Notes: a model not told the origin generated them from the letters alone. Counted from the first letter of the stretch, positions 5,926 to 59,780 are shown. The stretch: DNA of 64,000 nucleotides from Candidatus Sungiibacteriota bacterium (GCA_016201505.1 JACQCQ010000013.1:80830-144829), one strand, 5' to 3'. Numbers and translations: made by a program.

Positions 5926-5934
5926 ATGAGTGCG

Positions 5935-15633: not shown

Positions 15634-15686
15634 ACAATCAAAGTACATTATTCTAACTTATCAAACCATAGCGTTGCATCATCGAT

Positions 15687-15718
15687 AAAAGTTCGATAGA
15701 CTAGTCTATCGAACTTTT
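15687..15718. promoter_or_regulatory. Operator type 2, copy a: AAAAGTTCGATAGACT|AGTCTATCGAACTTTT, 32-bp perfect palindrome between the TrpR-like gene stop and the rseP start.
   Basis: Perfect inverted repeat sharing the core GTTCGATAGACTAGTCTATCGAAC with copies at 16149, 20417, 29422 and 35243. Confidence 0.6.
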
Positions 15719-15804
15719 TCACATTGCGGCTAACGAGCGCTTCCATCTTTTAAAACTTGCGGGCGAGCCTTTTACGGGTAGATCGAGCAACGCGATTACT
15801 TTCT

Positions 15805-16143
15805 CTAATGTTCCCATGAAACCTTTGAATTTTTCTGATTTTTGTGGATCAGAATAATTTTTGCATAGCCTCCCGCCGAACGTACTAGCTCCCTTTCGAC
15901 TGAATACACGGTGCTCTTACTTATTTTAAGAATTCTACAAATCGCAATCACATCAAATCCTTGTTCGATGAAAAACGCAACCATAAAACGTTTTGCGAGC
16001 ATCACTTTCTCGCTCCGCGTGAAGAATTCAGAAAGAAACAACGAGGCGTCGACTTCTCGAAGCTTCCCTAAGGCTCTAAACAGCGAGGAGATTATTTCCT
16101 GTTCGAATTCTTTTGAAATTTTATTCTGTGATACTCTCGGCAT
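15805..16143 (-). CDS. TrpR-related YerC/YecD-family small DNA-binding protein.
   Basis: 112 aa. The segment EKVMLAKRFMVAFFIEQGFDVIAICRILKISKSTVYSVERELVRSAGGY matches the YerC/YecD Trp-repressor-like HTH pattern. Confidence 0.75.
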   Translation of the reverse strand: MPRVSQNKISKEFEQEIISSLFRALGKLREVDASLFLSEFFTRSEKVMLAKRFMVAFFIEQGFDVIAICRILKISKSTVYSVERELVRSAGGYAKIILIHKNQKNSKVSWEH

Positions 16144-16148
16144 AGTAT

Positions 16149-16180
16149 ATTAGTTCGATAGACTAGTCTATCGAACTAAT
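16149..16180. promoter_or_regulatory. Operator type 2, copy b: ATTAGTTCGATAGACT|AGTCTATCGAACTAAT, 32-bp perfect palindrome 5 nt upstream of the TrpR-like start codon and overlapping the tlyA stop.
   Basis: Perfect palindrome with the same 24-bp core as 15687-15718. Confidence 0.6.
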
Positions 16181-16904
16181 TGACAGTGTAGCGAAAATGA
16201 ACGAGGTACTCAACATTACCCTTTGCGCCCCGAATTGGTGATTCGGCGGATCCAGCTACTTCCCAGCCCTGAAGTTTCGCCCAGTTTAAAAATTTATGAA
16301 GCGCAGTTTTTCGAATTTCCGCATCGGTTACAATGCCGTGATGAATCTCGCGTAAGTCTACTTCATATTGCGGTTTAAAAAGAAATACCCCTTCGGCGGT
16401 ACTCGCTAAAAACTTTTTTACCGATAGCAGAATATATCTAAGCGAGGTAAACGAAACATCACAGGTGACAAATTCTATTGGTTCCGGCAATGAGACAAGA
16501 TAAAGCAAATTCGTCTCTTCCATCACGACGATGCGCGGATCCTCGCGCAATTTTAAGGCCAGCTTCCCGCGCGCCGTATCAATAGCATAAACTTTTTTGG
16601 CGCCATGATTTAATAAGACTTCCGTAAATCCGCCAATGGCCGCGCCAATATCGGCGCAAACTTTTCCTTCGACGTTAAGGTCAAACTTTTCAAATGCGCC
16701 TTCTAATTTATAGCCGCCGCGGCCGACGTATTTTCTCGGCTCGCGCACTTTTAAAATCGCCTCTTGCAGATAAAGCTCTGCCGGCGAAACGGCTTTCCGG
16801 CCTCCGACAAAAATATCGCCTTCGGTTACGCGAATAAAAGCTTCGGCTTTACCTTTCACAATCCCCCGCTCGATCAAAATTTCGTCCAGTCGCTTCTTTT
16901 TCAT
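16176..16904 (-). CDS. tlyA: TlyA-family rRNA 2'-O-methyltransferase (hemolysin A-like).
   Basis: S4-like N-terminus, YVGRGGYKLEGAFEKF, SAM-binding CADIGAAIGGFTEVLL and VYAIDTARG motifs. Confidence 0.85.
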   Translation of the reverse strand: MKKKRLDEILIERGIVKGKAEAFIRVTEGDIFVGGRKAVSPAELYLQEAILKVREPRKYVGRGGYKLEGAFEKFDLNVEGKVCADIGAAIGGFTEVLLNHGAKKVYAIDTARGKLALKLREDPRIVVMEETNLLYLVSLPEPIEFVTCDVSFTSLRYILLSVKKFLASTAEGVFLFKPQYEVDLREIHHGIVTDAEIRKTALHKFLNWAKLQGWEVAGSAESPIRGAKGNVEYLVHFRYTVN

Positions 16905-17868: not shown

Positions 17869-18942
17869 CTATTTACCGACGACCGCAAAAATTATATTTG
17901 GATTATCGGGCTTGATGCGGAGTGCGGCAATCGATGCGGTTACATTCATCGGCATAGCGCGCCAATTCTCACCGAAGTCTTCCGAGACATAGATTGAATT
18001 GCCGGCGGCGGCATAAATCTCGCGTGAATTTTTGGTATTCACGGCTACTGACTGAATCGAAAGTCCTTTGGGTGGAATGATGAGCGGGACTTCTTTCCAT
18101 GTAGTTCCCGAATCGACTGAGCGCAAAAGTCCGAACTCGGAGGAGATATAGATAGTCGAAGGATTATTCTGATCAAGCCGGATATCGGTGATACTCGCGG
18201 CATTGGAGAAACTGGCATATCCCGGCGTCAATCGGGTCCAAGAAGCGCCCTCATCCTCCGTCCGATAGAGCTCACCGTGAGGCGTTAAAACAAATAATTC
18301 TGACCCGCGAGCTGGGTTTTGGATTAGGCTAATCAGGCCATCAGGAAACCATTTATCAACTTTCCAGGTTTTTCCGGCATCAGACGATGTCAAAAACCCG
18401 CCCTCACCGGTCGCGATATGCACCCGGCTTTCATTCTCGGGATTGATCGCGGCGCCAAAAACGCCGTACTTTAGAATCGGCACGAAATAAACCAGATCAA
18501 AGGTAATGCCGCCATCGACACTTTTTAAGACCTCGCCTTTGTTGTTTTGATAGACCGAAAGATAGATCAGCTTTTCATCTTTAGCACTTGTCGCGATTGA
18601 ATAGACCTCGGCGCTTTTGCTTACATTCTCTTTGGCATCAATTACGCGCGCCCAGGTTGCGCCGGCATTTTTTGAAACCCATAGGCTGCCGCCTTTCGTA
18701 CCCAAATATATAATGTTTGGATTCTTCCGATTAAACTCGAAACTCAAAATATGCGCAGGCAGTGCGATGCCGATTTCAGAACTTCGCACAGACAACGCCC
18801 ACGAGGATCCGCCGTCAGTGGATTTAAAAATGCCGGTCGTTGCCGACGTGGGATTTTTATTCGTCCCAATAAAAAACGGCAGAATGATTCCGAAAATCAA
18901 AACGAGCATCGCCAAAATTACCAGTAGATAACTAAACTTCAT
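17869..18942 (-). CDS. BNR/Asp-box repeat beta-propeller protein, membrane-anchored (Ycf48/sialidase-like fold).
   Basis: Seven S-x-D-x-G-x-(T/S)-W/F repeats (STDGGSSW, SKNAGATW, SVDGGITF, SSDAGKTW, TEDEGASW, SVDSGTTW, SEDFGENW). N-terminal TM helix. Confidence 0.75.
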   Translation of the reverse strand: MKFSYLLVILAMLVLIFGIILPFFIGTNKNPTSATTGIFKSTDGGSSWALSVRSSEIGIALPAHILSFEFNRKNPNIIYLGTKGGSLWVSKNAGATWARVIDAKENVSKSAEVYSIATSAKDEKLIYLSVYQNNKGEVLKSVDGGITFDLVYFVPILKYGVFGAAINPENESRVHIATGEGGFLTSSDAGKTWKVDKWFPDGLISLIQNPARGSELFVLTPHGELYRTEDEGASWTRLTPGYASFSNAASITDIRLDQNNPSTIYISSEFGLLRSVDSGTTWKEVPLIIPPKGLSIQSVAVNTKNSREIYAAAGNSIYVSEDFGENWRAMPMNVTASIAALRIKPDNPNIIFAVVGK

Positions 18943-20416: not shown

Positions 20417-20448
20417 TATAAGTACGATAGACTAGTCTATCGTACTTA
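20417..20448. promoter_or_regulatory. Operator type 2, copy c: ATAAGTACGATAGACT|AGTCTATCGTACTTAT, with a symmetric T-to-A variant in both half-sites. It lies upstream of holB.
   Basis: 32-bp perfect palindrome; the half-site change is mirrored, preserving dyad symmetry. Confidence 0.55.
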
Positions 20449-20545: not shown

Positions 20546-21100
20546 TTATGACGCGTCTTGCCGCAATGTTGCGAGTTGGATTTTTAACGCTTCGAGATTA
20601 GATTCGAGAATGGCAGTCCTCGGACTTTCATCGGCATTTATAATCATCTCGGAGAGAACGCCCTGCGTGATTGGTCCAAATGCTCCCCAACCGGTGGAAA
20701 GCGTATCGCCTTCGCAGACAATTTGCTCATCGCATTGAAATTGTTGTAAGGCCGCTTCTGTCCGCGGACCAAAAAATCCCGTGTCATTGCCGGACGAAAG
20801 ATAGCCGTACTGAATGAGATCTTTTTGTAATCTGGCAACATCTGTATGCGGCTCATCGATGGATGAGCTTCGAGGAAATTCGAGTGGCATGGTTGGCGCT
20901 TGGACGGTTAATTGTGGTTGGGCAGAGGTATAAGACGCAACACTAACAGATGCAAGGGAAGTCTTAAGCGAGAACTCACCGATCCCAATCATGGAGAGCG
21001 AGAAGACAAATAACATAAGCAGCAACACTTCCGACAGTGGGCTTAAACTTGGTTCAATTTTCTTTTTCTTTCGATGTTTCTTTAAGGTTTTCTTTTTCAT
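20546..21100 (-). CDS. Membrane-anchored protein with a putative peptidoglycan-binding domain (PG_binding_1-like).
   Basis: Lys-rich N-terminus plus TM helix. The segment LQKDLIQYGYLSSGNDTGFFGPRTEAALQQFQ matches the PG-binding repeat pattern. Confidence 0.6.
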   Translation of the reverse strand: MKKKTLKKHRKKKKIEPSLSPLSEVLLLMLFVFSLSMIGIGEFSLKTSLASVSVASYTSAQPQLTVQAPTMPLEFPRSSSIDEPHTDVARLQKDLIQYGYLSSGNDTGFFGPRTEAALQQFQCDEQIVCEGDTLSTGWGAFGPITQGVLSEMIINADESPRTAILESNLEALKIQLATLRQDAS

Positions 21101-21295
21101 AAAAAACAAAACACCCGCAAAAGGGGCGTCCCGCTTCCCATGTATCGAAGAGATGATCTCCTCACAATTTATAATACCCGATCACTTTTTATGATACAAG
21201 CGAGCTATCCACAATAGGCTACGAGATGAAGAATGGAGGCCAGCGACCAAAAAGATAGATAAAAATTGTATCAAGCCTGGGGCTGTACATCCAGT

Positions 21296-25075: not shown

Positions 25076-26412
25076 TCTAAACGCACCTCGCATAAGGATC
25101 AGGCTTTCGCCTGCTAGATTTCGATCTCGGGCAATCTCCACGCCGCAGGCAAGGTGCACCTCGCCAAAAGCACGTCTCCGCTGCAGCGGAGCAAGACGAC
25201 CCGAGCTCTGTTATCCCGAACATCGGTACGATTTTTTTTTGCGATGCAGATACCGAGGTAGCGGAGGAAGCAGACGCCCAGTAGAGGATCGGGCGAAGGC
25301 ACTACCTACTAGCTAACCCGATCATACGTGATGTCCACCCCCGCGCTTCTCATCACCTTGTCCAGTGATACTCCGCAAGCGCCACGGGATTTCCTGCATC
25401 GCAAACTGAATTTCTATTTTTCCTTATCTCATCCTGGAGTTTTCGCCGCGCCAAAATTTTTATAAATAAAAACTTAGGCGGGCGTCCGACCTTCTAGGAT
25501 CACTGTTCAATCAGTTTGCTAGTTTTCTAGTTGACTAGTTAACTAGTAGGTCGCTAAGCGACCGGAACTGATGAACTGACAGATTCCTAAAAAGAATATG
25601 TTCCATCGACAGCTTCCGCTACCGATGCCTTGTTCATGTTCTCCCTATGTCGCCATAAGGCATGGACTATATCATCACCCTTTGTTGCAATGTCTTGATT
25701 TTTCTCGGATGCCAACTTCCGATAATCTTCAAGAAGTTTTCTTGAGATTTTTTCGAAATAAACATTCGGAAATAATCTGGATCTATGTGGAAACTTGGAT
25801 TATGGATTTTCCCCGATTGGATTCCAAAACTTATCAGCATTTGTTTAAGTTTCTCCAGTTTGATGCGATCATTCTGCACCAGTTGAATGTAAAACCTTGC
25901 GGATGGACTTCTTGGAATTCCTCCCTCGGCATCAAAGAATCCTCTTAAATACGCTATTTTTTCCTCAGCTGAATTTAACCGCTTAGGATCGAATTTTGTA
26001 TCTAAGAATTTTGCTCTTGTTTCCAATACATACACTTTACGATTTCTGCCTTCGCGATATATCCAGGAGGTATTATCCGTTAGCGCTAGGCAAGATTTTA
26101 GTACTGATAACCAATCAGTACCTAGCTGCGCAAACCGGTGTCTTTGGTTATACCGATTGAAGGTGCCATCGTGAAGCGCACCGAGTAAGTATGCTCGGCA
26201 TTCTGCAACAGAAGGGGCTTGGCGTGTAGTCTCTGAGGCGCCTCCGACGTTACGTCGGAGTTGCCTGCTGATTGTCTGCGCTTTTCGCATTATCACTTCT
26301 AGAACTATTTTAGCTCTATAAGTAGCAAAAAGATACTCAGGTTTTCCAGCATATAGCCAAGTTTTTATGTGAGAATTACTCCTCACAAGTCGCAACGGAC
26401 GCAGTCTGCGCC
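25076..26412 (-). mobile_element. About 1.3-kb intron-like insertion near the 16S 3' end (E. coli position about 1506-1520) encoding a LAGLIDADG homing endonuclease.
   Basis: 16S exon sequence (positions about 1400-1505) occupies 26396-26497 and the terminal about 22 nt occupy 25051-25072. The intervening 1.3 kb has no 16S similarity and carries the LAGLIDADG ORF. Confidence 0.6.
25667..26395 (-). CDS. Double-motif LAGLIDADG homing endonuclease (intron-encoded). The track ORF begins with a TTG; the start is uncertain.
   Basis: Two LAGLIDADG-like motifs: LLGALHDGTF and YLRGFFDAEGGI. Length 242 aa. Confidence 0.8.
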   Translation of the reverse strand: MRLVRSNSHIKTWLYAGKPEYLFATYRAKIVLEVIMRKAQTISRQLRRNVGGASETTRQAPSVAECRAYLLGALHDGTFNRYNQRHRFAQLGTDWLSVLKSCLALTDNTSWIYREGRNRKVYVLETRAKFLDTKFDPKRLNSAEEKIAYLRGFFDAEGGIPRSPSARFYIQLVQNDRIKLEKLKQMLISFGIQSGKIHNPSFHIDPDYFRMFISKKSQENFLKIIGSWHPRKIKTLQQRVMI

Positions 26413-26497
26413 TACGACTTCGTCTTTGTCACCGATCCTACCGTGGGCCACCATAAGTGGACTTCGGGTATTACCAGCTCCCCTGACGTGACGGGCG

Positions 26498-27232
26498 GTA
26501 TTAAGATCACTTCTGTGTCTTACACCACTGGGCGAACGGTTTTCCCGTACCCTAGCGGTTTCTTATATCGCTTTCGCGATATAGATTCGTCCCTTCCCGA
26601 GCACATATTTTTGGAGTCTATTGACGAAATTTATCAATAGGTATATAAATTGTATACGAGGAGGTGAAGGATTATGTTGGGTATCGCGGTTCCACCGATC
26701 CCTGCAAACGCGGGTGTCAGTAGCGATCCGGAAGGACTGCTCGCGCTCCTTCTTCTGATGTTCGTCGTTGTTCCGTCAATCATCGTCATTTTCGGCGGCG
26801 CGATCATGGCGAACGTCGAAGACTGAGATCAGCGGACGGCTTTCACCCCCCACAGCGGCCTCCAGGAGGTCGCTTTCAATTTCTCCAAAAATATGTGCTC
26901 GGTACTATGGATTCTGCTGACTTCTCAATAAGCATCAAGATAAAATTGCTTTTATCCTTTACCTTTCGGACTTAATAAGATCTCCTTCGGTCACCGAATA
27001 TACCATTCTCTCACATCTCGATACTCCGTATATAGCGTAAAATTTGTGCAGATGACTTCTCCATGTACTCGAAGGATCGTCGATCTACGCTACCTATTAG
27101 CGAGTATTCAAGCTATAAGACATATACTTTCGCCCTTCATCCTGAGGATCACTCCTCGAAGGACTGCGATTTCATTTCGCGACTTCTGCAAATCGTGGTG
27201 GGATTTAAACCCACTGGCATACTCGGCTGCAA
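26498..27232 (-). other. About 735-nt insertion in 16S at the conserved 1400 region, between GACGGGCGGT and TGTACAAG.
   Basis: Universal 1392 primer-site sequence is split: ...GACGGGCGGT at 26485-26494 and ...GTACAAAGCTCGAGAACGTATTCACC at 27235-27262. Confidence 0.6.
26674..26826 (+). CDS. Candidate 50-aa hydrophobic peptide with a strong Shine-Dalgarno, encoded inside the 16S insertion (antisense to the rRNA).
   Basis: AGGAGGTG is 5 nt upstream of the ATG. Translation MLGIAVPPIPANAGVSSDPEGLLALLLLMFVVVPSIIVIFGGAIMANVED has one predicted TM helix. Confidence 0.3.
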   Translation: MLGIAVPPIPANAGVSSDPEGLLALLLLMFVVVPSIIVIFGGAIMANVED

Positions 27233-27708
27233 AGCACCCGAGTACAAAGCTCGAGAACGTATTCACCGCGGCATAGCTGATCCGCGATTACTAGCGATTC
27301 CATCTTCAAGGAGTCGAGTTGCAGACTCCTATCTGAACTGGGGCGCACTTTGATGGGATTAGCTCCGCCTTGCGGCTTGGCAACCCATTGTATGCGCCAT
27401 TGTAGCACGTGTGTAGCCCAGGGTATCAGAGGGCCATGCTGACCTCGCGTCATCCCCTCCTTCCTCTCCCGAAAAGGAAGCAGTCTCTCCTGACACATAT
27501 AACAGAAGACAAGGGTTGCGTTCGTTAACCCACTTAAGGGAACAGTTCAAACCACGAACTGACGAGGGCCATGCAGCACCTGTGATTGCCGTCTTGTGAA
27601 CACACCGCGGTTTCTCGCGGTTTTTGCAATCATTTCAAACCCTGGTGAGGTTCCTCGGTTGTCATCGAATTGAACCACATGCTCCACCGCTTGTGCGAGC
27701 TCCCGTCT

Positions 27709-27740
<32 letters not shown>

Positions 27741-27838
27741 TCCCAGGCGGCAGATTTAACGCGTTAGCTGCGCCACTCCGAGGGTCGATACTCGAAATAG
27801 CTAATCTGCATCGTTTAGGGCGTGGACTACTGGGGTAT

Positions 27839-28920
27839 CTACAATTTTGTTGCGACAAAATTGGAATTTCTAAATCCGAATTTCTAATTTCTAAACAAAT
27901 CCGAAATCTCAAATTTCCAAATTGCGGACGAGACATTTCTGCTCGTCTCTCCGTATCGCTACGGAGATCGGACTGTATCATGACGGAAAGTATTACTGGC
28001 GCGGGTTTCGCTTTCGCTCACCCGCGCCGGGACTTCCGCCCTCGGCGTGCAGTCTCTGAGGGTTACGAAAGAGAGATCGGCGCTGTTTCTACATGCCGAT
28101 GGCCGAAACCGGGCCCGTCGAGGCTATCTCCGTAGCTTTCCTTGACGATGCGCTCGACGCGTACCACATTACCCATATCTTGAGCGATGGCGCGAGCTAC
28201 ATTGTCACCTTGAGCTTCGAACTCTACGACTGCCCAATATTTCATAGCTTCTCCTTTTCGTCCTTCCCTGCTGGTTGTCCGTTGACCGATCCGCGTTTAG
28301 CGGATACAGGTCGCACCGGATGCTTTTTTACCACTACTTTACATCGAACTTGCTGACTTCCTTCCGCATTCCTTCAAGGACCCTGCGAATCTCCGGCGAA
28401 TTGCCGTACTTCGCGAGGTACTTGTCGATCAGCTCGAGAAACCCGTTCTGCATGGCCTCGCGGGCCATTTGAGTGAACAAGCTCATTGTTTTTTTCCTTT
28501 CTGTGGTAGCACCGGATACACCGGATGTTCCAGCATATAGCTCCGCCGTCGCCTCACGGCTATGGCGGATCCCAACTTCACCATCATATTTTTCAATGGT
28601 GCGTCGGGACAAGTTTTCCAGGCAGTAGAAATTCGACTCGCTTCACAGCTGGCCGCAGAGAGGCCGGTCGAATTTCTACTGCCTGGTTTTTCCTTTTGAC
28701 GCGTTACTTCGCGTCCTAAGGGGACCATGCTCACGGTACCCCTACCGCCTCACTCTCGTTCGCTGTATCAACAGCGCCCTCAAGCGAGTCACATGTATGC
28801 ACAGAGAAATTTTTTCGAAACTCAAGGGAGGGATCCCGTCGTCGGAACGACAAATCCCTATGGGGAGAGTTGTAACATGCTCCTCCCTTGGTGATGAAAA
28901 AATTTCTCTGTGCAAAACAT
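27839..28920 (-). other. About 1.1-kb insertion in 16S after the 785-805 site. It contains small ORFs (28063..28245 and 28334..28612, minus strand) and a hairpin repeat element.
   Basis: 16S blocks on either side are contiguous in normal 16S (GGACTACTGGGGTATCTA at 27820-27838 and CCCATTCGCTCCCCACGCTTTCG at about 28925). The intervening sequence has no rRNA similarity. Confidence 0.55.
28613..28686. repeat. Hairpin element with 21-bp perfect terminal inverted repeats CCAGGCAGTAGAAATTCGAC...GTCGAATTTCTACTGCCTGG (family member 1).
   Basis: Perfect inverted repeat with a 28-nt interior. The terminal repeats match the element at 29205-29332. Confidence 0.6.
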
Positions 28921-29204
28921 GCGCGAGCGCTTTCGATCCCATTCGCTCCCCACGCTTTCGTCTGTGAACGTCAGGACAAGGCCAGCAACATGCCTTCGCC
29001 TTTGGTATTCCCTATGATATCAACGGATTTCACCCCTACACCATAAGTTCTAGTTGCCTCTCCTTGCCTCTAGTCGTGCCGTTTCGAATGCGGCCTACGA
29101 GTTAAGCCCGTAGATTTAACACCCGACTAACACGACCGTCTGGAGACCCTTTACGCCCAATAAATCCGGATAACGCTTGAAGCCTTCGTATTACCGCGGC
29201 TGCT

Positions 29205-29332
29205 GGCCAGGTAGTAGAAGTTCGACTGCGCGCGAGCGCAAATTATTTTCGAACATTTAATTTTCAGAGCCATGACAGATAGTGCTCCCAACTACAGAAA
29301 TCTTCATTTCATAGTCGAACTTTCACTACCTG
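29205..29332. repeat. 128-bp hairpin intervening element inserted in the 16S 530-loop region. Terminal repeats CCAGGTAGTAGAAGTTCGACTG / CAGTCGAACTTTCACTACCTGG. Family member 2 (IVS/MITE-like).
   Basis: The insertion splits the universally conserved GCTGCTGGCAC (519 site) into GCTGCTGGC | element | CTGGCAC, with a CTGGC direct repeat. The 22-bp terminal inverted repeats are near-identical to those of the 28613 element. Confidence 0.65.
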
Positions 29333-29344
29333 GCTGGCACGAAA

Positions 29345-29995
29345 TTCTACCGCCAATTTGGACTATATCATCACCCCGATGTTCATCGGGGGTCCCGCGT
29401 GTAGTCTCTGAGGGCTCTCTGCTATAAGTTCGATAGACTAGTCTATCGAACTTATAGAAACAGGTTGCCTGCTGATTGTTTCGTTGCGCGTCTTTGCAGT
29501 TTGCAAAACATTTCCGCGGACACAACGAAGTGTTCCAGTCCCGCAAGCCTCCCCACCGCAATACACTGATGTATTGTAGTGGCATGACTCACAGGATTCC
29601 CGAATCCATCTTTTCTTACGGCCAATAGGGCCGCGGGATTGCGATTTGTAACTACTCCGCCTTCGCTAAAAGCTTCGGCGGACAAGTCGTTACACTCGCA
29701 GACAAATCGGGAACATATAGCGAGATTTTCTTATGACGTATTACTACGCCAACTTCGCACCAAGTTTTTCTAACTTCACGAAGTTTGCAGCTTCTTATTC
29801 ATCTGGTACGGTCAGTCGTGCCTCGCTCTAGCGAACCACTCTCAATTTTAAATTTCCAATTTCTAATTTTCAATGAATGTCCTAATGTCTCAATTTCCAA
29901 AGGTTTGGGGTATTGAATCATTAAGAATTGACTGAAAATTGCAAAATTGATCATTGCAAATTGTGTGCCTCACAAAAGTGAGACACGACTTCTTC
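29345..29995 (-). other. About 540 extra nt in the 16S region between E. coli positions about 400 and 515. It contains the operator type 2 palindrome and sequence blocks shared with the LAGLIDADG intron.
   Basis: Blocks GCGTGTAGTCTCTGAGGG (29396-29413) and GTTGCCTGCTGATTGT (29464-29479) also occur at 26222-26238 and 26261-26276 within the LAGLIDADG ORF region. Conserved 16S resumes near 29995 (CTTTACAGACCGAAGTCCTTCTTCCTGCACGCGGCG). Confidence 0.5.
29422..29457. promoter_or_regulatory. Operator type 2, copy d: CTATAAGTTCGATAGACT|AGTCTATCGAACTTATAG, 36-bp perfect palindrome, located inside the 16S insertion.
   Basis: Identical 36/36 to the copy at 35243-35278. Confidence 0.55.
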
Positions 29996-30237
29996 CCAGA
30001 TAAAAGCAGTTTACAGACCGAAGTCCTTCTTCCTGCACGCGGCGTCGCTCGATCAGGCTTTCGCCCATTGTCGAATATTCTCGACTGCAGCCACCCGTAG
30101 GTGTATGAACCGTATCTCAGTTTCATCGTTGGGGATCACGCTCTCACGCCCCCTACCCGTCATAGCCAAGGTGCGCCATTACCACACCTTCTAGCTGATA
30201 GGACCAAGGCTCCTCCCCGAGCGCTCTTGCGAGCTTT

Positions 30238-30296
30238 ACCCCGCCTAAATTTTTGAGCTTTTTCATACTTTCAAAAAGCTCAAAAATTTAGGCGGG
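30238..30296. repeat. 25-bp perfect-stem hairpin expansion in the 16S V1-V2 region.
   Basis: CCCCGCCTAAATTTTTGAGCTTTTT-catactttc-AAAAAGCTCAAAAATTTAGGCGGGG. Confidence 0.5.
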
Positions 30297-30624
30297 GACC
30301 ATTGAGTATTAGCCAATCTTTCGGCTGGTTATTCTCATCTCGGGGGTAGATTCCAAGGTATTACTGAACTCGTTCGCCGCTAACTGGCAAATTGCGCGTA
30401 GCTAATGGAAAATAGTATTGCTACTATAAGCCATCCGCCAATTGCTATAAGCCAATTCGCACGACTTGCATGCCCTATCCACGCCGCCAGCGTTCATCCT
30501 GGACCAGGATCAAATCCTCTAATAGATCAGTTAGTTTTTCAGTTTACTAGTTGCCTAGTTCACATATTGCTAACTGCCGAGAACAAGAGGAAGAAAGAAA
30601 CGAATTTTTAGAAAACTCGCGAAA

Positions 30625-30978: not shown

Positions 30979-31386
30979 CTACGGACGGCCTGTCCAGCCG
31001 TCATCGAATGAACCGATTCGATGCGTCGCAGGATCTGCCGGCGTTCCGGCGAGTAGCGAGAACTGCGTACCGAGATCGTCAGCCTTGAAACCGTGATCAA
31101 GCAGGAACTGACGCGTCCGCGCGATACGCTCGATGATAGGGTCTATGGCGCTTGAGCCTCTCTTCCGCCAGAGCTTATCCAGCGCCCAGAGAAGATCACG
31201 GGCCTTTCCCTTCTGATGCAGAATTTTCAAAGCTCCCGGTTCCCCCGCAATTTCGTAGAGAATCTCATCCTCGATAGATTCAAGCGCCCGAAGCTGATGG
31301 CGCCAGATGCGAAGCAACGAGCTTGCGGGAGGCACAATGTACCCCTCGCTTGTAAGCGTACCAAGGATTTTACTCGGCATTGTCAC
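30979..31386 (-). CDS. Hypothetical protein (135 aa) in a high-GC island. The frame stays open for about 100 more codons after an in-frame TAG.
   Basis: ORF with protein-like composition. After the TAG at 30979-30981 the same frame stays open to the terminator at about 30665. Confidence 0.35.
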   Translation of the reverse strand: MTMPSKILGTLTSEGYIVPPASSLLRIWRHQLRALESIEDEILYEIAGEPGALKILHQKGKARDLLWALDKLWRKRGSSAIDPIIERIARTRQFLLDHGFKADDLGTQFSLLAGTPADPATHRIGSFDDGWTGRP

Positions 31387-31776
31387 GACTCCTTTCCTTT
31401 TCCTTCTTCCTCTTGTTCTCTAATTCACTCATTAAGTTTTACTTAGCGAGTATAGTTCTAAAATCGAGCTCCGCAGTAATTATGAGAATCGGAATCCCGC
31501 ATCAATCTCGGCGCGACTTTCATTCGTTCGTGAGTCGAATGCTCGGAGATCGCCTCCGGCTGACTTTATAGAATAAGAAAGTTTGTCGTAAAGATTGGTG
31601 CGGGATTCTCGATTTTGTCCTCAAAAATTATCGCTTCACTCAATTTTTGAACAAAATCGGAACAGTTGGAATTTTTCCAGGCCTTTCAGTTTCTAGTTAC
31701 GCTCGCATTGCGAGCTACAGTTTTCTAGTTATAACTAGCCAACTAATAAACTAGCGAACTAAAAGGTTACTAATTT

Positions 31777-31806
31777 ATCCCGTTAGAAACTTTTTCTAAT
31801 CGGGAT
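31777..31806. repeat. Short hairpin ATCCCGTTAGAAACTTTTTCTAATCGGGAT, a minimal member of the CCCGTTAGA inverted-repeat family.
   Basis: Inverted repeat CCCGTTAGAA / TTCTAA(T)CGGG. Confidence 0.5.
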
Positions 31807-31830
31807 TGTGCTACACCCATTATTTTTATT

Positions 31831-31858
31831 CACTCCAATACTTTAAAGTATTGGAGTG
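31831..31858. promoter_or_regulatory. Operator type 3, solo copy: CACTCCAATACTTT|AAAGTATTGGAGTG, 28-bp perfect palindrome.
   Basis: Identical to the palindrome at 36548-36575 flanking the second TrpR-like gene. Confidence 0.55.
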
Positions 31859-31876
31859 CTTCAATAATGGTGTATT

Positions 31877-31905
31877 TGTCCCGTTAGAAACTTTTCCTAA
31901 CGGGA
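31877..31905. repeat. Short hairpin GTCCCGTTAGAAACTTTTCCTAACGGGAT (CCCGTTAGA family).
   Basis: Inverted repeat CCCGTTAG / CTAACGGG with a 10-nt loop. Confidence 0.5.
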
Positions 31906-32175
31906 TCTATTCAATTATTAAAATACTGTCCAAGCAGACACCACGAATTTATACAAACTGTTTTCGGCAAACACGCACAAACATTTCGTATCCTTTCGTT
32001 AACAATCTTGTAACGATTCGTGGTTTATTCTTACAAAACAGAACCACGCAAATTCCCATAAAGAAACTTGCGCGGTTCTGCCTGCATTGTGTCCCCCAAT
32101 TGACTCGAGGGTTTTGACTTGTTCCCGGCCCCAACGATTCCGATAGACCGAGTATTTTGATAGGCGAAACAGCTA

Positions 32176-32242
32176 CATCCCGTTTAGAAGTAAGAAACTG
32201 ATGTTTCTGCTACTTTCAGAGAAAGAGGACTTCTAACGGGAT
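32176..32242. mobile_element. MITE-like element (67 bp) with ATCCCGTTTAGAAG / CTTCTAACGGGAT terminal inverted repeats.
   Basis: Terminal inverted repeats share the CCCGTTAGA core with the elements at 32309, 35068, 58294 and 59674. Confidence 0.5.
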
Positions 32243-32308
32243 ACATTTAACCTATCTGACAACCAAGTTAAGGTAAGTAAAAGTATAAGCCTCTATAAGA
32301 AATTGTCA

Positions 32309-32473
32309 ATCCCGTTAGAAGCCGCGACTACGAAAGATAGAACTAAAATGATTATTTTTATTGAATCTAGACTAATCTGACACAAACACGTTTGATCGCG
32401 ATCCTACCTGCGCTCCGTCGGCCATAGCCTTTGGCGACGTGCGACCGGCAGGCAGGTCTGCTTCTAACGGGAT
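32309..32473. mobile_element. MITE-like element (165 bp). Its left terminal repeat ATCCCGTTAGAAGCCGCGA and right terminal repeat TCTGCTTCTAACGGGAT match the two ends of the 59674-59780 element in reverse orientation.
   Basis: 14-17-bp terminal inverted repeats. The internal GTTTGATCGCGATC block is shared with the 59674 element. It lies just downstream of the ROK kinase stop codon. Confidence 0.6.
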
Positions 32474-32498
32474 CAAGTATTTCCTCCAGCCGCATCGC

Positions 32499-33236
32499 TC
32501 AGCGAAACAGCAACGCCGCCCCGATGGCTTGAGCCGCATCCCCTAAAGCGCCAAATGCAATTTGAGGCACGATATCGCCTAATCGATCGGCTACTTTTTT
32601 CTGCAGGACTTCTAAATCATATTTTCCCGCCGCAATCGGCCCGCCGCCGATGACGACAGCTTGGGGATGAAATTTATGAATGGCTTCAGAAATTACCCCC
32701 GCATATGCGTTGGACGCATCACCGGCAATCGCAAATTCTTGACGGGCTAATTCTTCCCACTCAATGGCGCCTTTCTTCCAATGTCCGATTTCACCCGCTC
32801 GTCCATCATCGCCGACATAAAACGTTCCGTTCTTCCAAACAGCGCCCCCAATGCCAGTCCCGACGACAACACCGACCGCGTCTTTAAATCCGCGGGCCGC
32901 ACCCCAGGCCATCTCGGCGGAGAGAAAACAGCGCGCGTCATTATCGGCCCGGATCTCGCCTGAAAAATCAGGCAGCAGATCGGCCGCGGATTGGTGATTT
33001 AAAAATGAAATATTCGGTGCCTCTTCGATGATCAATCCGCCCTCTGGTACAAACCCGGCGAGGCTTAATCCGATCTTAGTTCCTTCAAAGTCTTTCGCGA
33101 TATCGGATAAGGATTTTTTTAATTCAGCTAAGCTTTTTGGAGTCTGGATTTTTTTAGCTTGAAAGTTTTGGCTAAGAAACCCTCGAAGCACGACACTTCG
33201 AATCCAGGTTGCGCCGATATCAATCCCCAAATACAT
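32499..33236 (-). CDS. ROK-family sugar kinase (glucokinase-like).
   Basis: MYLGIDIGATWIRSVVL N-terminal actin-fold phosphate-1 motif; GVVVGTGIGGAV; ROK signature region DGRAGEIGHW. Confidence 0.85.
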   Translation of the reverse strand: MYLGIDIGATWIRSVVLRGFLSQNFQAKKIQTPKSLAELKKSLSDIAKDFEGTKIGLSLAGFVPEGGLIIEEAPNISFLNHQSAADLLPDFSGEIRADNDARCFLSAEMAWGAARGFKDAVGVVVGTGIGGAVWKNGTFYVGDDGRAGEIGHWKKGAIEWEELARQEFAIAGDASNAYAGVISEAIHKFHPQAVVIGGGPIAAGKYDLEVLQKKVADRLGDIVPQIAFGALGDAAQAIGAALLFR

Positions 33237-33239
33237 GAA

Positions 33240-35069
33240 CTATAGCGCGCTCTGGTTAAATAATTCACCCGCCATATTCCAATATTCTGGTCTGGCATGT
33301 TTTGTTTTCATGTAATACCACCATTCTGCCCCCCAAAGATAATATTCATCAAATCCGGCGGCTTGGGCATAGCTGATAACTTCTTGGAAGTATGCGGGGG
33401 TGAAATTGTTAATTTGCGTTTTGATCGGAGTCTCCGGAATGGATAAATGCTGCCAGGGTTCGGCTTGTAATTCAATCACGAGATAGCGCTCATCGGGTTT
33501 GCCGGTAAAATATTTCACGAATTTTTCTTTCAGCAAAAAAGCGCCGGGACCAATGGGATATTCCGTCACACCAAAAAACGGACCCAAAATGCGCGAATAG
33601 ACTTTGCGGTACATCGTCGTGCCAAAAACATCGCCGCGCGAAGCCGCGCGAATCCAATCCCCCGTCTCGCCCGCGTCCGATATTAAAATTTGGTGCGCTG
33701 GATCAATTGATCGCACTAAGGCTATTTCGTTATCAAGAAATCCGCCGGGCCGCGAAGGGCAGGTGCCAAAGGGCAGAAATGGTTCATTTTCCACTTGCCA
33801 GAGATAGAGACTCGGACTGGCTACGTAATGTCGGACAACCTCGGCGATAAAGGGTTGCAGCTTGGCTTCTTTCTCCCCTGTCGAAAGATTCTCTACCCAG
33901 CCAGGAAGATGGCACTCCGGCCAACGCGGCAGCTTCATGCCGACCGCCAAAATTACCGGCAGGTTTCTTTTTTCGGCCTCATGCATAAGGATATCCAGCC
34001 GCGAGAAATCGAATTTATTTTCCTTTGGCTCGATCTCGTCCCAATAGGCCACAAGCCGCAGGCGTTTCGGTTGGAGTTCATCGAGTATGGCAATGTACGA
34101 CGAACGCCAATCCAGCCCGAGTTGGTCGGTAAAGGCGGTCGAGAACGTAAGTCCCCAGACAATCGGCCGGTCGGGATTCTTTTTTAATGTACCAGAATAA
34201 GCGGAAAGTCCGAACACTAAAAGCCCCGAGAAAATGAAAGCTATTGCCAGAATTTTCCCCCATAACACCCTGCCGCGAAATTTCTCATGCAGCAGCAATG
34301 CGCCAAAAATAAAAATAATGACATACTGAAAGCCCTGGACAGACTCAACCAGCGCCGGATGCGCCAGAAAAACGGCAAACGAAAATAAGAACGAGCCAAT
34401 TCCCGCGACGAGACGATTGGCCAGATAATATGCGCTTTCAGTTTTGATTTCCGCCCCTTTTTCGCTTTGCAGCTTCTGGCGAAACTGCGGAATCAGAAAA
34501 GCCAAAAGCGCAAGCAACACGCCGCCGATTTTTACCCAGACAAATCCGGCGATAAACGTGCTGTGAAGGTAGACGTATTTGGTGAGCACTTGTGAAAAAC
34601 CGAGCAGAAGTGCGCTGAATGTGGTCAGGAGGATCATGCGAACCCTCATTCCGCGCTCTTCGATAAAAAAGAGGACTAGGCCCCCGAAGACTAAAAACCA
34701 AAAGCCAAATGATTCGCCCTGCCCGACCGGAATATGCAGCAGATACGAAGAAAACAGAAGTGCCGAGAGGGCTGAAAATCCGGCAATGATGGGCAGGCTA
34801 ATGGAGGCCTCGCTGTGATGCAAGGCGAAATAAAGCAAGAGGAGACCCAGACAGAATAATGCCCCCGCGGCAAGCGCTGTACCTATCAAACTAATCGGAA
34901 TAACGACATTCCCAAAAGGAATTAAAACAAGCGCAAAAAGTCCCAAGAGGCCCAACCAGAAGGCATACGACCAAGGATTAAAAACCCCGCGTTTTAAAAT
35001 CACGCGATCAAAAACTGCTGCCAGACCAAGTAGGAATTGAGATAAAAGTGCGACAAAGAGCCAGTTCAT
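33240..35069 (-). CDS. Membrane-anchored glycoside hydrolase: N-terminal about 9-10 TM helix domain fused to a C-terminal clan GH-A TIM-barrel hydrolase domain.
   Basis: Multiple hydrophobic helices across the first 300 aa. The C-terminal domain has the WQVENEP motif (the NEP acid/base of clan GH-A) and GH5/GH42-like context. Confidence 0.75.
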   Translation of the reverse strand: MNWLFVALLSQFLLGLAAVFDRVILKRGVFNPWSYAFWLGLLGLFALVLIPFGNVVIPISLIGTALAAGALFCLGLLLLYFALHHSEASISLPIIAGFSALSALLFSSYLLHIPVGQGESFGFWFLVFGGLVLFFIEERGMRVRMILLTTFSALLLGFSQVLTKYVYLHSTFIAGFVWVKIGGVLLALLAFLIPQFRQKLQSEKGAEIKTESAYYLANRLVAGIGSFLFSFAVFLAHPALVESVQGFQYVIIFIFGALLLHEKFRGRVLWGKILAIAFIFSGLLVFGLSAYSGTLKKNPDRPIVWGLTFSTAFTDQLGLDWRSSYIAILDELQPKRLRLVAYWDEIEPKENKFDFSRLDILMHEAEKRNLPVILAVGMKLPRWPECHLPGWVENLSTGEKEAKLQPFIAEVVRHYVASPSLYLWQVENEPFLPFGTCPSRPGGFLDNEIALVRSIDPAHQILISDAGETGDWIRAASRGDVFGTTMYRKVYSRILGPFFGVTEYPIGPGAFLLKEKFVKYFTGKPDERYLVIELQAEPWQHLSIPETPIKTQINNFTPAYFQEVISYAQAAGFDEYYLWGAEWWYYMKTKHARPEYWNMAGELFNQSAL

Positions 35070-35172
35070 CCCGTTAGAGAATTAATCAGTAACTCTAGCG
35101 CAAGTTTAATGTCTATATGTGCTACAAGTCTCATTTTCGGAATACAGTTTCTCGCTAATTCTCTAACGGGAT
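35068..35172. mobile_element. MITE-like element (105 bp) with 17-bp terminal inverted repeats ATCCCGTTAGAGAATTA. Its left end overlaps the start codon of the upstream membrane GH gene.
   Basis: Perfect 17-bp terminal inverted repeats. The element begins with the AT of the gene's ATG (rc of 35067-35069). Confidence 0.6.
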
Positions 35173-35242
35173 AGACTATTTACCTCAATTGTATCCCGCG
35201 AACGGGTTAAGCTGAAATTGGGCAAAGGGGAATGGCCAAAAG

Positions 35243-35278
35243 CTATAAGTTCGATAGACTAGTCTATCGAACTTATAG
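35243..35278. promoter_or_regulatory. Operator type 2, copy e (36-bp perfect palindrome) upstream of the membrane GH gene.
   Basis: CTATAAGTTCGATAGACTAGTCTATCGAACTTATAG, identical to 29422-29457. Confidence 0.55.
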
Positions 35279-35325
35279 AAAGCTGAAAGATTATAATGAG
35301 AATATTCCGCTCTCGAAGTTTTATT

Positions 35326-36537
35326 CTAATCCCCCAACGGGATTGTATTCGTTGCGATGATTTTTTTGTACTCAAGGGCCGATGGTCGAATTTTGCGCTC
35401 TTGGGTTTTGTAGTTTACCTCCACCAGGCCAAACCGCGGACTAAATCCGGAGTCCCATTCAAAATTATCGATGAGAGACCAGTGTAAATAGCCAAAGCAG
35501 TTCACTCCCTTTGTTAAAGCTCTTGCGACGCTTTTCACATTATCTTGAATGTAGGCCGGCCGGTAATTATCTTTGGCGTCAGCCAGTCCGTTTTCAGTGA
35601 CGATAATCGACGCATTAAATCTTCGATGTAAGCCCATCAGTGCATGATACAGACTCCCGTCAAAAATTTCCCAACCCATATCTGAAACTTTTTTGTTTTT
35701 ATTTCTGCCAAAGCCGTAATGAATGCGATTATGAAAATAATGATTTAAGCCAATAAAATCAAAATGCCCTCGCGTGTGATTTAAAACATGATAGTTCCAG
35801 ATGCGGTCAGCCGCCCATTTCAAAATATAGTTCACCGGCCCGCCCGCGGATTCAAAGTAGACAATATTAACTGCCAGCCCGACTTTGGCATCGGGGCGCA
35901 CACCCTTTACCGCCTGATAGGCTTTCCGATGAGCAGTAATCAAGCGCGCGATAGCTTTATAAAATAAAAAAATATTCTTCTTTTGCGGCCCCCACTTGCC
36001 CCTTAAATAGGAGTTTAAGGCATAGATCTCCGGTTCATTGATAGTGATCCAATGGCGGACATCGCCACCGAAAGCCTCGGCCATTTTTTTTACGTAGCGT
36101 TCAAAGTACATCGGGAATTGGCTTGATTGAATCCCGCCCTGATTGCGAAGCCAAATTGGTAACGTAAAGTGCCACAGGGTGAGAAACGGCTCAATGCCGC
36201 GCTCGCGAAGCGCTTTAATTACCTCGCGATAATGTTCAATGGCAGCCTGATCGAATTTTCCTTTTTTCGGCTCAATGTATGACCACTCAAGCGAAAACCG
36301 GTGCGCATTGTGGCCTAAATCTTTGGCGATATCAAAATCCTCGCGGAATCGATTATAGTGATCAGAGGCGCGGCCTGAAATATAATCTTCGGGATTTAAA
36401 CCTTCGGTCTTTAACTCTAGAACGCGCTTGGGAGACTCTTCCCACTCCGTCCAATCATTATGATTTGCGCCTTCTACCTGATGCGCCGAGGTTGCAGCCC
36501 CCCAGAAAAATCCGCTCGGAAATTTAAATGTCTCCAT
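35326..36537 (-). CDS. bgl: GH1 family beta-glucosidase.
   Basis: N-terminal FPSGFFWGAATSAHQVEG GH1 signature; catalytic acid TINEP (WITINEPEI); nucleophile motif TENG (IIVTENGLAD). Confidence 0.95.
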   Translation of the reverse strand: METFKFPSGFFWGAATSAHQVEGANHNDWTEWEESPKRVLELKTEGLNPEDYISGRASDHYNRFREDFDIAKDLGHNAHRFSLEWSYIEPKKGKFDQAAIEHYREVIKALRERGIEPFLTLWHFTLPIWLRNQGGIQSSQFPMYFERYVKKMAEAFGGDVRHWITINEPEIYALNSYLRGKWGPQKKNIFLFYKAIARLITAHRKAYQAVKGVRPDAKVGLAVNIVYFESAGGPVNYILKWAADRIWNYHVLNHTRGHFDFIGLNHYFHNRIHYGFGRNKNKKVSDMGWEIFDGSLYHALMGLHRRFNASIIVTENGLADAKDNYRPAYIQDNVKSVARALTKGVNCFGYLHWSLIDNFEWDSGFSPRFGLVEVNYKTQERKIRPSALEYKKIIATNTIPLGD

Positions 36538-36547
36538 GTTATCAACT

Positions 36548-36575
36548 CACTCCAATACTTTAAAGTATTGGAGTG
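36548..36575. promoter_or_regulatory. Operator type 3, copy a: CACTCCAATACTTTAAAGTATTGGAGTG. It abuts the stop of the TrpR-like gene and lies 10 nt upstream of the GH1 start.
   Basis: 28-bp perfect palindrome. Confidence 0.6.
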
Positions 36576-36986
36576 CTATACTTTCACCATGTTCCATCGA
36601 CCCCTTGGATCTGATTTTCTCGGTAAGCTCATAAAGAGTTTTTCAATAGTTTCAAACGTATTCTTGAAATTTTTGCTCCTCTCAAGATTTTTTATAAACA
36701 TCCTGAATCCCCTTCCATCGCGCTGAAGTTTTTCACTAATCGTGCCTATGGTAGTTTGGCTAACTTTTAAAATTCGTTCTATCTGCTGATAGGAGTAATC
36801 CTCTTCGAGCAAAAGCGCTATTAAGATTCTTTTTCCGAGCATTGCTTTTTCAGTAGTAGTCAATAAATCATCAAAGAACAATTTCAACGAGCCTCTATCC
36901 CGCAAAATTAAGGTGGCTTCGACGATTCTGCTTGACAGATCATCTATATGGCCTGGCGTTAATTTATAACGTGATAGATGCGGCAT
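36576..36986 (-). CDS. TrpR-related YerC/YecD-family small DNA-binding protein (second paralogue).
   Basis: 136 aa. FFDDLLTTTEKAMLGKRILIALLLEEDYSYQQIERILKVSQTTIGTISEKL closely follows the YerC/YecD consensus (FFDDL.T..E...L..R...A..L.EG.SY..I.......S..TIS). Confidence 0.75.
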   Translation of the reverse strand: MPHLSRYKLTPGHIDDLSSRIVEATLILRDRGSLKLFFDDLLTTTEKAMLGKRILIALLLEEDYSYQQIERILKVSQTTIGTISEKLQRDGRGFRMFIKNLERSKNFKNTFETIEKLFMSLPRKSDPRGRWNMVKV

Positions 36987-36992
36987 GGCTGT

Positions 36993-37020
36993 ACTCTAAT
37001 ACTTTAAAGTATTGGAGTAA
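36993..37020. promoter_or_regulatory. Operator type 3, copy b: TACTCTAATACTTTAAAGTATTGGAGTA (1 mismatch), 6 nt upstream of the TrpR-like start codon.
   Basis: Near-perfect palindrome with the same core as 36548-36575. Confidence 0.55.
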
Positions 37021-59561: not shown

Positions 59562-59675
59562 TTAGCCTTGCCGCTGCTTATGCTTTGGATTCTTGCATAC
59601 AACAAATACTCGACCGTTCCGTCGAGTTGTCTTGCAATGACTGCAGATCTTTTTAACCGATGCGCGAACTTTCAT
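59562..59675 (-). CDS. rpmJ: 50S ribosomal protein L36. It is not in the ORF track because it is under 60 aa.
   Basis: Manual translation [37 protein letters not shown] matches the L36 consensus ([11 protein letters not shown]...RR.GR..V.C.NP.HKQRQG). Confidence 0.85.
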
Positions 59676-59780
59676 CCCGTTAGAAGCAGATCGCGATCAA
59701 ACGCGTTGTCTGCAAAAATAAATGTAATTAAATTGCTCTTTGTAACCCCGCTATTTCGCGATCGCGGCTTCTAACGGGAT
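59674..59780. mobile_element. MITE-like element (107 bp). Its terminal repeats ATCCCGTTAGAAGCAGA...CGCGGCTTCTAACGGGAT match those of the 32309 element in reverse orientation. Its left end overlaps the rpmJ start codon.
   Basis: Both ends carry the CCCGTTAGAAG core and match the 32309-32473 ends in reverse orientation. An internal GATCGCGATCAAACGCG block is shared with 32309-32473. The element begins with the AT of the rpmJ ATG. Confidence 0.6.

Follow-up and report, generated by a model that had tools for sequence, protein, structure and literature searches.

Why would a permease-like membrane bundle and a glycosidase share one polypeptide, and what might such a protein do beside a β-glycosidase and a sugar kinase? 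The question is raised by a stretch of 64,000 nucleotides (nt) from Candidatus Sungiibacteriota bacterium (GCA_016201505.1 JACQCQ010000013.1:80830-144829), a metagenome-assembled genome (MAG) of the Patescibacteria (candidate phyla radiation, CPR). This whole stretch is referred to here as the window, and all coordinates are counted within it. Four genes run in the same direction on its minus strand between positions 32499 and 36986 (Table 1): a YerC/TrpR-like gene, a glycoside hydrolase family 1 (GH1) gene, a gene for a membrane protein of 609 residues, and a ROK-family kinase gene that starts 3 nt past the stop codon of the membrane protein gene. A sequence-only reading of this DNA had described the GH1, membrane glycosidase and ROK genes as collinear, and all three open reading frames (ORFs) are indeed present in that arrangement. 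Its family calls are backed by Pfam for GH1 and ROK, and the 609-residue protein gives weak matches to EamA (residues 145-280) and to GH42 and GH10 (residues 343-432). The motifs it had listed were also found on direct inspection, namely NEP and TENG in the GH1 protein and WQVENEP (residues 424-430) in the membrane protein. Our analyses suggest that the 609-residue protein is a two-module membrane enzyme, the fused version of a permease/signal-anchored glycosidase pair that is conserved in Patescibacteria.

Fold, active site and topology of the 609-residue protein

For the 609-residue protein, 66 full-length homologues (43-53% identical) were aligned, and the AlphaFold2 model built on them has a mean predicted local distance difference test score (pLDDT) of 86.9, rising above 90 over most of the barrel, and a predicted template-modelling score (pTM) of 0.72. 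Residues 3-294 form ten long transmembrane (TM) helices, and TM10 is followed by a linker of about eight residues and then by eight strand/helix units. As modelled, the N-terminal module is a genuine DMT fold, although its EamA score (20.2-21.7 bits) is under the Pfam cut-off of 28.2; a split homologue, from locus L046, scores 31.5 bits. Ten TM helices are also found in the choline importer LicB, the triose-phosphate translocator, YddG and nucleotide-sugar transporters. The earlier description of about ten TM helices joined to a clan GH-A catalytic domain thus agrees with both the model and the alignment, in which the N-terminus has a transport-like fold and the C-terminal domain stays among the glycoside hydrolases of clan GH-A.

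Invariant positions are commoner in the C-terminal half of the 66-homologue alignment than in the membrane half. They include W424, Q425, E427, N428, E429, E533 and E537, together with the motifs PRWPECH and GAEWW. In the DMT module, the polar residues D21, R219, E262 and K272 are invariant. E429 (33783-33785), within WQVENEP, lies just past strand 4 (421-426) of the model, and E533 (33471-33473), within VIELQAEPW, lies in strand 7 (528-535). These are the acid/base and nucleophile positions of the retaining glycosidases of clan GH-A, so the C-terminal module is, on the model, a catalytically intact clan GH-A barrel with both predicted catalytic glutamates conserved. Two cysteines of the same module, C386 (33912-33914) and C437 (33759-33761), one of them within PRWPECH, are nearly invariant and could form a disulfide pair.

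The position of this domain within the clan is less specific. With the modelled structure, Foldseek matched clan GH-A enzymes at E values of about 1e-6, and a profile search of PDB sequences aligned only the segment of strands 3 and 4 (best E 1.4e-7, to a GH10 xylanase). No single family among GH5, GH10, GH35, GH39 and GH42 was matched over the full length, and the matched structures are 11-18% identical, with near-equal scores across families. The (β/α)8 barrel, the NEP acid/base motif after strand 4 and the nucleophile glutamate on strand 7 are shared with the GH42 and GH35 β-galactosidases, GH164, the GH5_18 β-mannosidases, the GH10 xylanases and the GH39-like PslG. In contrast to these families, from which it is about equidistant, the domain has its own PRWPECH and GAEWW motifs and comes with an obligate DMT partner. 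If its substrate were defined, the domain would probably become the founder of a new clan GH-A family of glycoside hydrolases.

The distribution of charge over the membrane loops is strongly asymmetric. In the 66 fused proteins, the lysines and arginines of loops 1-2, 3-4, 5-6, 7-8 and 9-10 average 12.3, compared to 0.58 in loops 2-3, 4-5, 6-7 and 8-9, and the same bias is found in 52 stand-alone permease homologues (12.8 versus 1.4). Under the positive-inside rule this places both termini of the bundle outside, and therefore also the glycosidase. Stand-alone glycosidases of about 335 residues start with a positively charged head and one hydrophobic helix, i.e. a signal anchor, and exactly this helix is missing from the fused form. 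Further relatives within the glycosidase family have PG_binding_1, staphylococcal nuclease (SNase) or Peptidase_C39_2 domains at the C-terminus, which we take to be extracytoplasmic. The glycosidase module is accordingly predicted from sequence to face the outside of the cell, in agreement with the topology that the sequence-only reading had left to be checked. A cytoplasmic glycosidase, as expected from the canonical DMT topology with both termini inside, was considered and is countered by the loop charges, the signal-anchored split forms and the extracytoplasmic partner domains. In LicB, the closest solved relative of the DMT module, the two termini are cytoplasmic (PMC8890701), whereas those of this permease family, with its fused or adjoining glycosidase, are predicted to be outside. 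The module is thus predicted to be upside-down relative to LicB, and inverted insertion is possible for a fold made of two inverted repeats.

Distribution and gene partners in Patescibacteria

Relatives of the permease-glycosidase pair were found in at least 596 Patescibacteria species genomes (one genome per species scanned). With the 609-residue sequence as query, a protein search gave 510 hits at E≤0.001. The top 120 of these are all 591-620 residues long, cover the full query and are named merely “EamA/DMT family transporter”; one NCBI entry, “DMT family transporter”, is 100% identical to the query. With more than 500 full-length homologues of about 600 residues from independent assemblies, the possibility that the fusion is an artefact of MAG assembly is ruled out. 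Searched by itself, the glycosidase module gives at least 7072 protein clusters, which are annotated as “beta-galactosidase”, “cellulase family glycosylhydrolase” or “hypothetical”; a search at the level of 50% identity gives 1118 representatives, mostly of about 335 residues. Clusters with a named source are nearly all from Patescibacteria, the lone exception being a MAG labelled Spirochaetae, and sequences keep 30-54% identity between distant lineages. The architecture had been called unusual, but it is a lineage-wide module of Patescibacteria, usually encoded by two adjacent genes and fused in several clades.

Gene partners were counted in 83 non-redundant loci, using our own ORF calls and clustering. 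The core consists of a gene for a ten-TM permease of about 300 residues directly followed by a gene for a signal-anchored glycosidase (about 52 loci), or of the fused gene (about 24). GH1 genes occur in 49 of the 83 loci, in 41 of them as the immediate same-strand neighbour; most called GH1 ORFs (38/46) end no more than 161 nt upstream on the same strand, frequently overlapping the next gene by 3-12 nt. ROK is directly adjacent in 10 loci. In a neighbour-joining tree of the glycosidase domains, fused forms fall into at least four separate clades, pointing to repeated fusion (or fission), and GH1-linked loci are spread across most of the tree. The presence of fused forms in several clades and the lasting adjacency amid changing neighbours suggest that permease, glycosidase and GH1 work together, and with GH1 and ROK as conserved partners, the cassette can be regarded as a functional unit. 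In locus L005 a PaaX-like regulator gene lies between trmD and GH1, the slot taken in the window by the YerC/TrpR-like gene, and a local regulator at this position in both loci fits an inducible catabolic unit.

Profiles and motifs support the family membership of both partners in the window. The GH1 protein scores 267.5 bits against Pfam PF00232 (cut-off 22.6, E 2.2e-79) and 285 bits against TIGR03356 BGL, which is under the equivalog cut-off of 478.5. Its acid/base motif NEP (residue 167) and nucleophile motif TENG (residue 314) both align with those of Pyrococcus horikoshii BGPh (PDB 1vff), to which the protein aligns end to end (3.5e-68). End-to-end alignment is also obtained with SGR_2426 (PDB 8kap); all share a short form of about 400-420 residues and both catalytic glutamates. 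BGPh associates with membranes and has a preference for long-alkyl glucosides (PMC4687101), and SGR_2426 is a β-1,2-glucosidase (PMC12369401). Because the preferences of these two relatives differ, the specificity of the GH1 protein in the window can not be transferred from them. The ROK protein scores 102.8 bits against Pfam (cut-off 22.9, E 3.3e-29) and carries the motifs DIG (residue 6), NDA and GEIGH (residue 148), with every NCBIfam equivalog match far under its cut-off. Classical ROK glucokinases have a cysteine-rich zinc motif, CxCGxxGCxE; a motif check found no CxCG in the 245-residue protein.

Not all loci follow the GH1 pattern. In 15 loci (L024, with the gene at 5721-7004, and 14 others), which are essentially one clade, a gene for a DUF6938 protein of 420-450 residues, not GH1, directly precedes the permease gene, often overlapping it. 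A profile of 13 DUF6938 proteins matches UgtP, a processive diacylglycerol β-glucosyltransferase (PDB 9wde, E 1e-6), with a weak match to plant monogalactosyldiacylglycerol (MGDG) synthase, and NCBIfam assigns NF010135 “diglucosyl diacylglycerol synthase” (8.5e-7); the DUF6938 proteins are distant relatives of these enzymes. Most of these loci have a small glycosyltransferase family 2 (GT2) gene after that of the glycosidase, and in L005 a GT2 gene lies between GH1 and the fused gene. The clade also has a conserved array of ComEC, DUF6938, permease, glycosidase, GT2 and HtrA genes. ORFs of about 425 residues, which clustering had suggested to be glycosidase paralogues, were rejected as such: the one scanned, from L076, is an HtrA protease drawn into the cluster by single linkage.

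The glycosidase is also joined to domains other than the permease. In one protein of 747 residues, P0137, a GH1 domain shares a single chain with the signal-anchored glycosidase, and the same join is found in L064 (6803-8410). As P0137 has no further TM helix after the signal-anchored glycosidase, its GH1 domain should lie outside the cell. Further fusions, in homologues P0129, P0133, P0135 and P0150, are to staphylococcal nuclease, Peptidase_C39_2, DUF192 and PG_binding_1 domains.

Possible functions of the cassette

The analyses show the two folds, conservation of the catalytic glutamates, a location that is predicted to be outward and the linkage of the genes; from these we infer a substrate, a direction of transport and an order of steps as follows. 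The cassette may serve for scavenging at the cell surface, a reading that we favour tentatively and put somewhat short of an even chance. The surface glycosidase would cut a β-linked glycan or glycoside, the cleavage product would enter through the attached DMT module, the BGPh-like GH1 protein would split the imported product to glucose, and the ROK kinase would phosphorylate the released glucose. The logic of uptake, intracellular GH1 and sugar kinase is the same as in the bgl, asc and cel operons and in systems that combine an ATP-binding cassette (ABC) importer with GH1 or GH3. Unlike these classical β-glucoside systems, the cassette has no phosphotransferase system (PTS), ABC importer or BglG antiterminator, and uptake would use a DMT module joined to a surface hydrolase.

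Several observations weigh against surface scavenging in this form. The DMT module matches no functionally defined DMT subfamily of NCBIfam or Pfam, even at permissive E values, and in the model the short linker from TM10 to strand 1 may turn the catalytic face off the membrane. By analogy, the preference of the closest full-length solved GH1 relative for long-alkyl glucosides points towards lipid-linked substrates. An external GH1 domain, as predicted for P0137, would not fit an order of import followed by GH1. Finally, to judge from their sequences, UgtP-like and GT2 partners replace GH1 in one clade. In view of these last partners, the coupled cleavage and uptake proposed by the sequence-only reading is not supported as it was worded.

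The last three of these observations can be accommodated if the cassette handles glycolipids or other glycoconjugates of the envelope, an alternative that we consider rather unlikely but weightier than those that follow. Here the DMT module would flip or present a β-glucosyl lipid, such as glucosyl-diacylglycerol that the cell either produces itself or scavenges from a host, the surface glycosidase and a membrane-associating GH1 would trim the head group, and ROK would capture the glucose. This is favoured by the UgtP-like DUF6938 gene directly before the permease in 15 loci, with GT2 after the glycosidase, and by the full-length alignment of GH1 with BGPh, whose membrane association and substrate preference were given above (PMC4687101). 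A lipid substrate present in either leaflet would also reconcile a mostly cytoplasmic GH1 with the external GH1 of P0137. A parallel is offered by the ypfP(ugtP)-ltaA genes of Gram-positive bacteria, since in one clade, not including the window, a UgtP-like gene likewise directly precedes a multi-pass membrane protein. LtaA is a protein of the major facilitator superfamily (MFS), whereas the multi-pass protein of the cassette shows a DMT fold and goes together with a glycosidase. However, the UgtP-like/GT2 loci are essentially a single clade, and the 609-residue protein falls in the GH1 and ROK part of the tree, in an operon without any lipid-related gene. The match to endoglycoceramidase is no better than that to dozens of GH-A families, and we know of no DMT protein that flips glycolipids.

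Glycolipid handling can be taken further, to a salvage pathway in which the inverted DMT module moves β-glucosyl lipids between leaflets and both glycosidases strip their head groups; this extended proposal is decidedly unlikely in our estimation. If it were true, Patescibacteria that are unable to make lipids would gain diacylglycerol as well as glucose from glycolipids of a host or of the environment, and the UgtP-like/GT2 clade would rebuild its own glycolipids with the same machine. The glycosidase would then represent a new family of clan GH-A, one whose obligate partner is a membrane protein, and the permease would be the first DMT protein acting on lipid-linked sugars.

It is still less probable, and in our view a slim prospect, that the cassette is an accessory of polysaccharide synthesis or export, in which the surface glycosidase trims or releases a self-made glycan, as PslG and BcsZ do, and the DMT module exports a precursor. 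PslG, which serves an exopolysaccharide pathway and is itself a clan GH-A enzyme anchored in the membrane, ranks with the top hits of the Foldseek and profile searches, but it is just 16-18% identical and scores no better than other GH-A families. GT2 genes beside or inside the cassette in about 12 loci, L005 included, and the PG_binding_1 fusion, which suggests action on the cell wall, are consistent with such a role, but the cassette in the window has no synthase, polymerase or flippase of known exopolysaccharide systems. The dominant partners, GH1 and ROK, look catabolic, making a PslG- or BcsZ-like function less likely. That the DMT module is a mere membrane anchor, or a transporter whose link to the glycosidase has no mechanistic meaning, would suit its sub-threshold EamA score (20.2-21.7 against 28.2 bits) and lack of an assignable DMT subfamily, but is scarcely credible given that split glycosidases have a TM anchor of their own and need no other, that in about 80 species permease and glycosidase remain side by side although their other neighbours differ, with fused forms in at least four clades, and that the four polar residues of the DMT module are invariant.

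Repeated elements, genomic setting and significance

Table 1. Genes, protein modules and repeated elements of the cassette and of related sites in the window.
Feature	Coordinates	Strand	Size	Remarks
YerC/YecD-type TrpR-like helix-turn-helix protein	36576-36986	-	136 aa	candidate local regulator
Short GH1 β-glycosidase	35326-36537	-	403 aa	no signal peptide
Fused membrane protein	33240-35069	-	609 aa	DMT module and glycosidase
DMT/EamA-fold permease module	34188-35069	-	ten TM helices	residues 1-294; predicted N-out/C-out
Clan GH-A glycosidase module, (β/α)8	33243-34172	-		residues 300-609; predicted extracytoplasmic
Short ROK-family sugar kinase	32499-33236	-	245 aa	
Second TrpR-like gene	15805-16143	-		type 2 palindromes either side (15686-16181)
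Type 3 palindrome, one mismatch	36993-37018			7 nt upstream of YerC/TrpR-like ATG
Type 3 palindrome	36548-36575		12-bp stem, 4-nt centre	between regulator stop and GH1 ATG
Type 3 palindrome, third copy	31832-31857			non-coding stretch 3' of ROK
Type 2 palindrome	35243-35278		perfect over 36 nt	spacer between GH1 and 609-residue protein genes
Type 2 palindrome	16148-16181			4 nt upstream of second TrpR-like gene
Type 2 palindrome	15686-15719			just past coding region of second TrpR-like gene
Type 2 palindrome, further copy	20417			
Type 2 palindrome	29421-29460		identical over 40 nt to spacer copy	577-nt insertion, 530 loop of 16S rRNA
Inverted-repeat element, MITE/REP-like (miniature inverted-repeat transposable element/repetitive extragenic palindrome)	35063-35177			termini ATCCCGTTAGA(G/A)
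Non-coding stretch 3' of ROK	31772-32483			six TCCCGTTAGAA-type arms, third type 3 palindrome, promoter-like site

The window encodes two TrpR-like proteins, which are paralogues (30% identity, E 1e-16). The product of the gene next to GH1 scores 48.6 bits against Pfam Trp_repressor (cut-off 27, E 8.7e-13) and 36.1 against TIGR02531, under the cut-off of 42.2; it is a candidate local regulator of the cassette. The second reaches 19.7 bits in Pfam, below the same cut-off of 27. Its ORF ends at 15805, and the -1 frame runs on for 28 codons (EKVIALLDLPVKGSPASFKRWKRSLAAM, 15717-15807) that resemble the C-terminal tail of the first paralogue and stop right at the type 2 palindrome, so that the gene may be frameshifted, a pseudogene or the result of an assembly error.

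Two kinds of palindrome occur at these genes. Type 3, ACTCCAATACTTTAAAGTATTGGAGT, has three copies in the window and type 2 has five, each against 0 expected. One type 3 copy (matched at 36549-36574) occupies the 38-nt gap between the stop of the regulator gene and the ATG of GH1, lying directly after the stop and 10-11 nt before the ATG, which matches the distance of 10 nt in the sequence-only reading. The type 2 palindrome (matched at 35244-35277) and MITE-like element that it had placed upstream of the membrane protein gene are likewise present, in the 256-nt spacer that separates this gene from GH1. The 3' arm of the element supplies the A and U of the start codon of the 609-residue protein gene. 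A complete second copy at 59675-59779, between infA and rpmJ, also has a 3' arm (...AACGGGAUG) ending in the A and U of a start codon, that of rpmJ. Arms of the TCCCGTTAGAA type number 10 in the window against 1.2 expected, with shared termini and paired arms. The interiors of the element differ among copies, and each still folds as a near-perfect hairpin. Either a preference for insertion at start codons or an effect of the hairpin on translation initiation would be compatible with this arrangement.

The same reading held that the operon is wired to both TrpR-like regulators. What stands of this is that each paralogue is bracketed by palindromes of its own type, a good sequence-level argument for binding that would fit autoregulation by the TrpR-like proteins. 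The link to the operon is circumstantial, in view of the copy in the 16S rRNA gene, the nature of the spacer and the absence of any detected TrpR-like gene from the other loci (tblastn, E<1e-5). The alternative is that the palindromes and the TCCCGTTAGAA element are repeated and possibly mobile elements or RNA hairpins, rather than operators evolved for TrpR-like proteins, and we regard the chances of this as about even. In its favour, a type 2 copy identical over 40 nt to that of the spacer lies within the 16S rRNA insertion, and the second copy of the inverted repeat, like the first, ends in a start codon. Relatives lack the whole spacer that carries the type 2 palindrome and the element, their GH1 and permease genes being mostly close neighbours (at most 161 nt apart on the same strand in 38 of 46, often overlapping), so both look like insertions; an exact empty site for the 35063-35177 element was found in no close relative. 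All are predicted to be very stable hairpins as RNA: -17.7 kcal/mol (z -5.6) for the type 3 palindrome at 36548-36575, -21 kcal/mol (z -6.2) for the type 2 palindrome at 35243-35278, and -38.1 (z -5.9) and -47.9 kcal/mol (z -7.7) for the inverted repeats at 35063-35177 and 59675-59779. Against it, each paralogue has a copy of its own type 4-7 nt before the ATG and another just past the coding region (0-1 nt for the first paralogue), which is hard to ascribe to chance and typical of autoregulated repressors. The two readings are also not exclusive, since TrpR-like proteins may bind repeats that are spreading.

Searches for other signals were largely negative. Neither the palindromes nor the inverted-repeat elements match a known RNA family in Rfam at gathering thresholds, and the five hits to the type 3 core in a scan of metagenomes are unrelated AT-rich hairpins without a TrpR-like, GH1 or permease gene nearby. 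A consensus promoter scan found fewer sites than expected by chance, and none overlaps the palindromes beside GH1 or the 609-residue protein gene, a further point in favour of repeats over operators. The lone match over the type 3 copy at 31832 is weak (9/12) and within chance expectation. The best promoter-like site of the region, TTGACA-16-TATACT (11/12; 32309-32282, minus strand), is inside a repeat element.

The cassette is preceded upstream by trmD, a KH-domain gene and rpsP, and followed on its 3' side by a 1.1-kb non-coding stretch and then an interrupted 16S rRNA gene. No ORF of the 1.1-kb stretch (31387-32498) matches a family, and inverted-repeat arms lie densely along it; a 135-residue ORF next to it (30979-31386) has no match in Pfam or NCBIfam. 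The 16S rRNA gene (27198-30525, minus strand) is heavily interrupted, with Rfam matches at 27198-27923 and 28823-30525 and insertions of 62, 38, 162 and 577 nt in the alignment, the last splitting the 530 loop. A group I intron (Rfam, 59.5 bits; 25643-26423, minus strand) contains an ORF for a 242-residue LAGLIDADG protein (25667-26395, Pfam 4.6e-13), and at 26884-26960 on the minus strand a group II intron D1-D4 fragment is matched marginally, with 36 bits. Rfam gives no large subunit (LSU) rRNA match around either intron match. Near the type 2 palindrome at 20417 are genes for a BNR/Asp-box β-propeller protein (17869-18942) and a PG_binding_1 protein (20546-21109).

The component superfamilies of the cassette, i.e. 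clan GH-A, DMT, GH1, ROK and TrpR-like proteins, are all known. Literature searches for Patescibacteria or CPR with EamA, DMT, glycoside hydrolase, GH1 or glucokinase, and for DUF6938, returned nothing relevant. In the literature open to searching we found no description of a clan GH-A family outside the families tried here with an obligate and repeatedly fused DMT partner, of the inverted topology predicted for this DMT module, or of the near-exclusive and very wide distribution of the cassette in Patescibacteria. As the proteins are annotated as “DMT/EamA transporter”, “beta-galactosidase” or “cellulase family”, their pairing is invisible in metabolic reconstructions.

The genomes of Patescibacteria are very small, and these bacteria presumably live at the expense of other cells, yet their carbon uptake is poorly known. 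The presence of the permease-glycosidase pair in at least 596 species genomes and thousands of clusters, the 30-54% identity kept between lineages and the repeated appearance of fused clades mark the cassette as a core function of these bacteria. It is thus no one-off curiosity but a core module, so far unstudied, of a major lineage of uncultivated bacteria, and definition of its substrate would reveal either a main route of sugar acquisition or a new way of handling membrane glycolipids.

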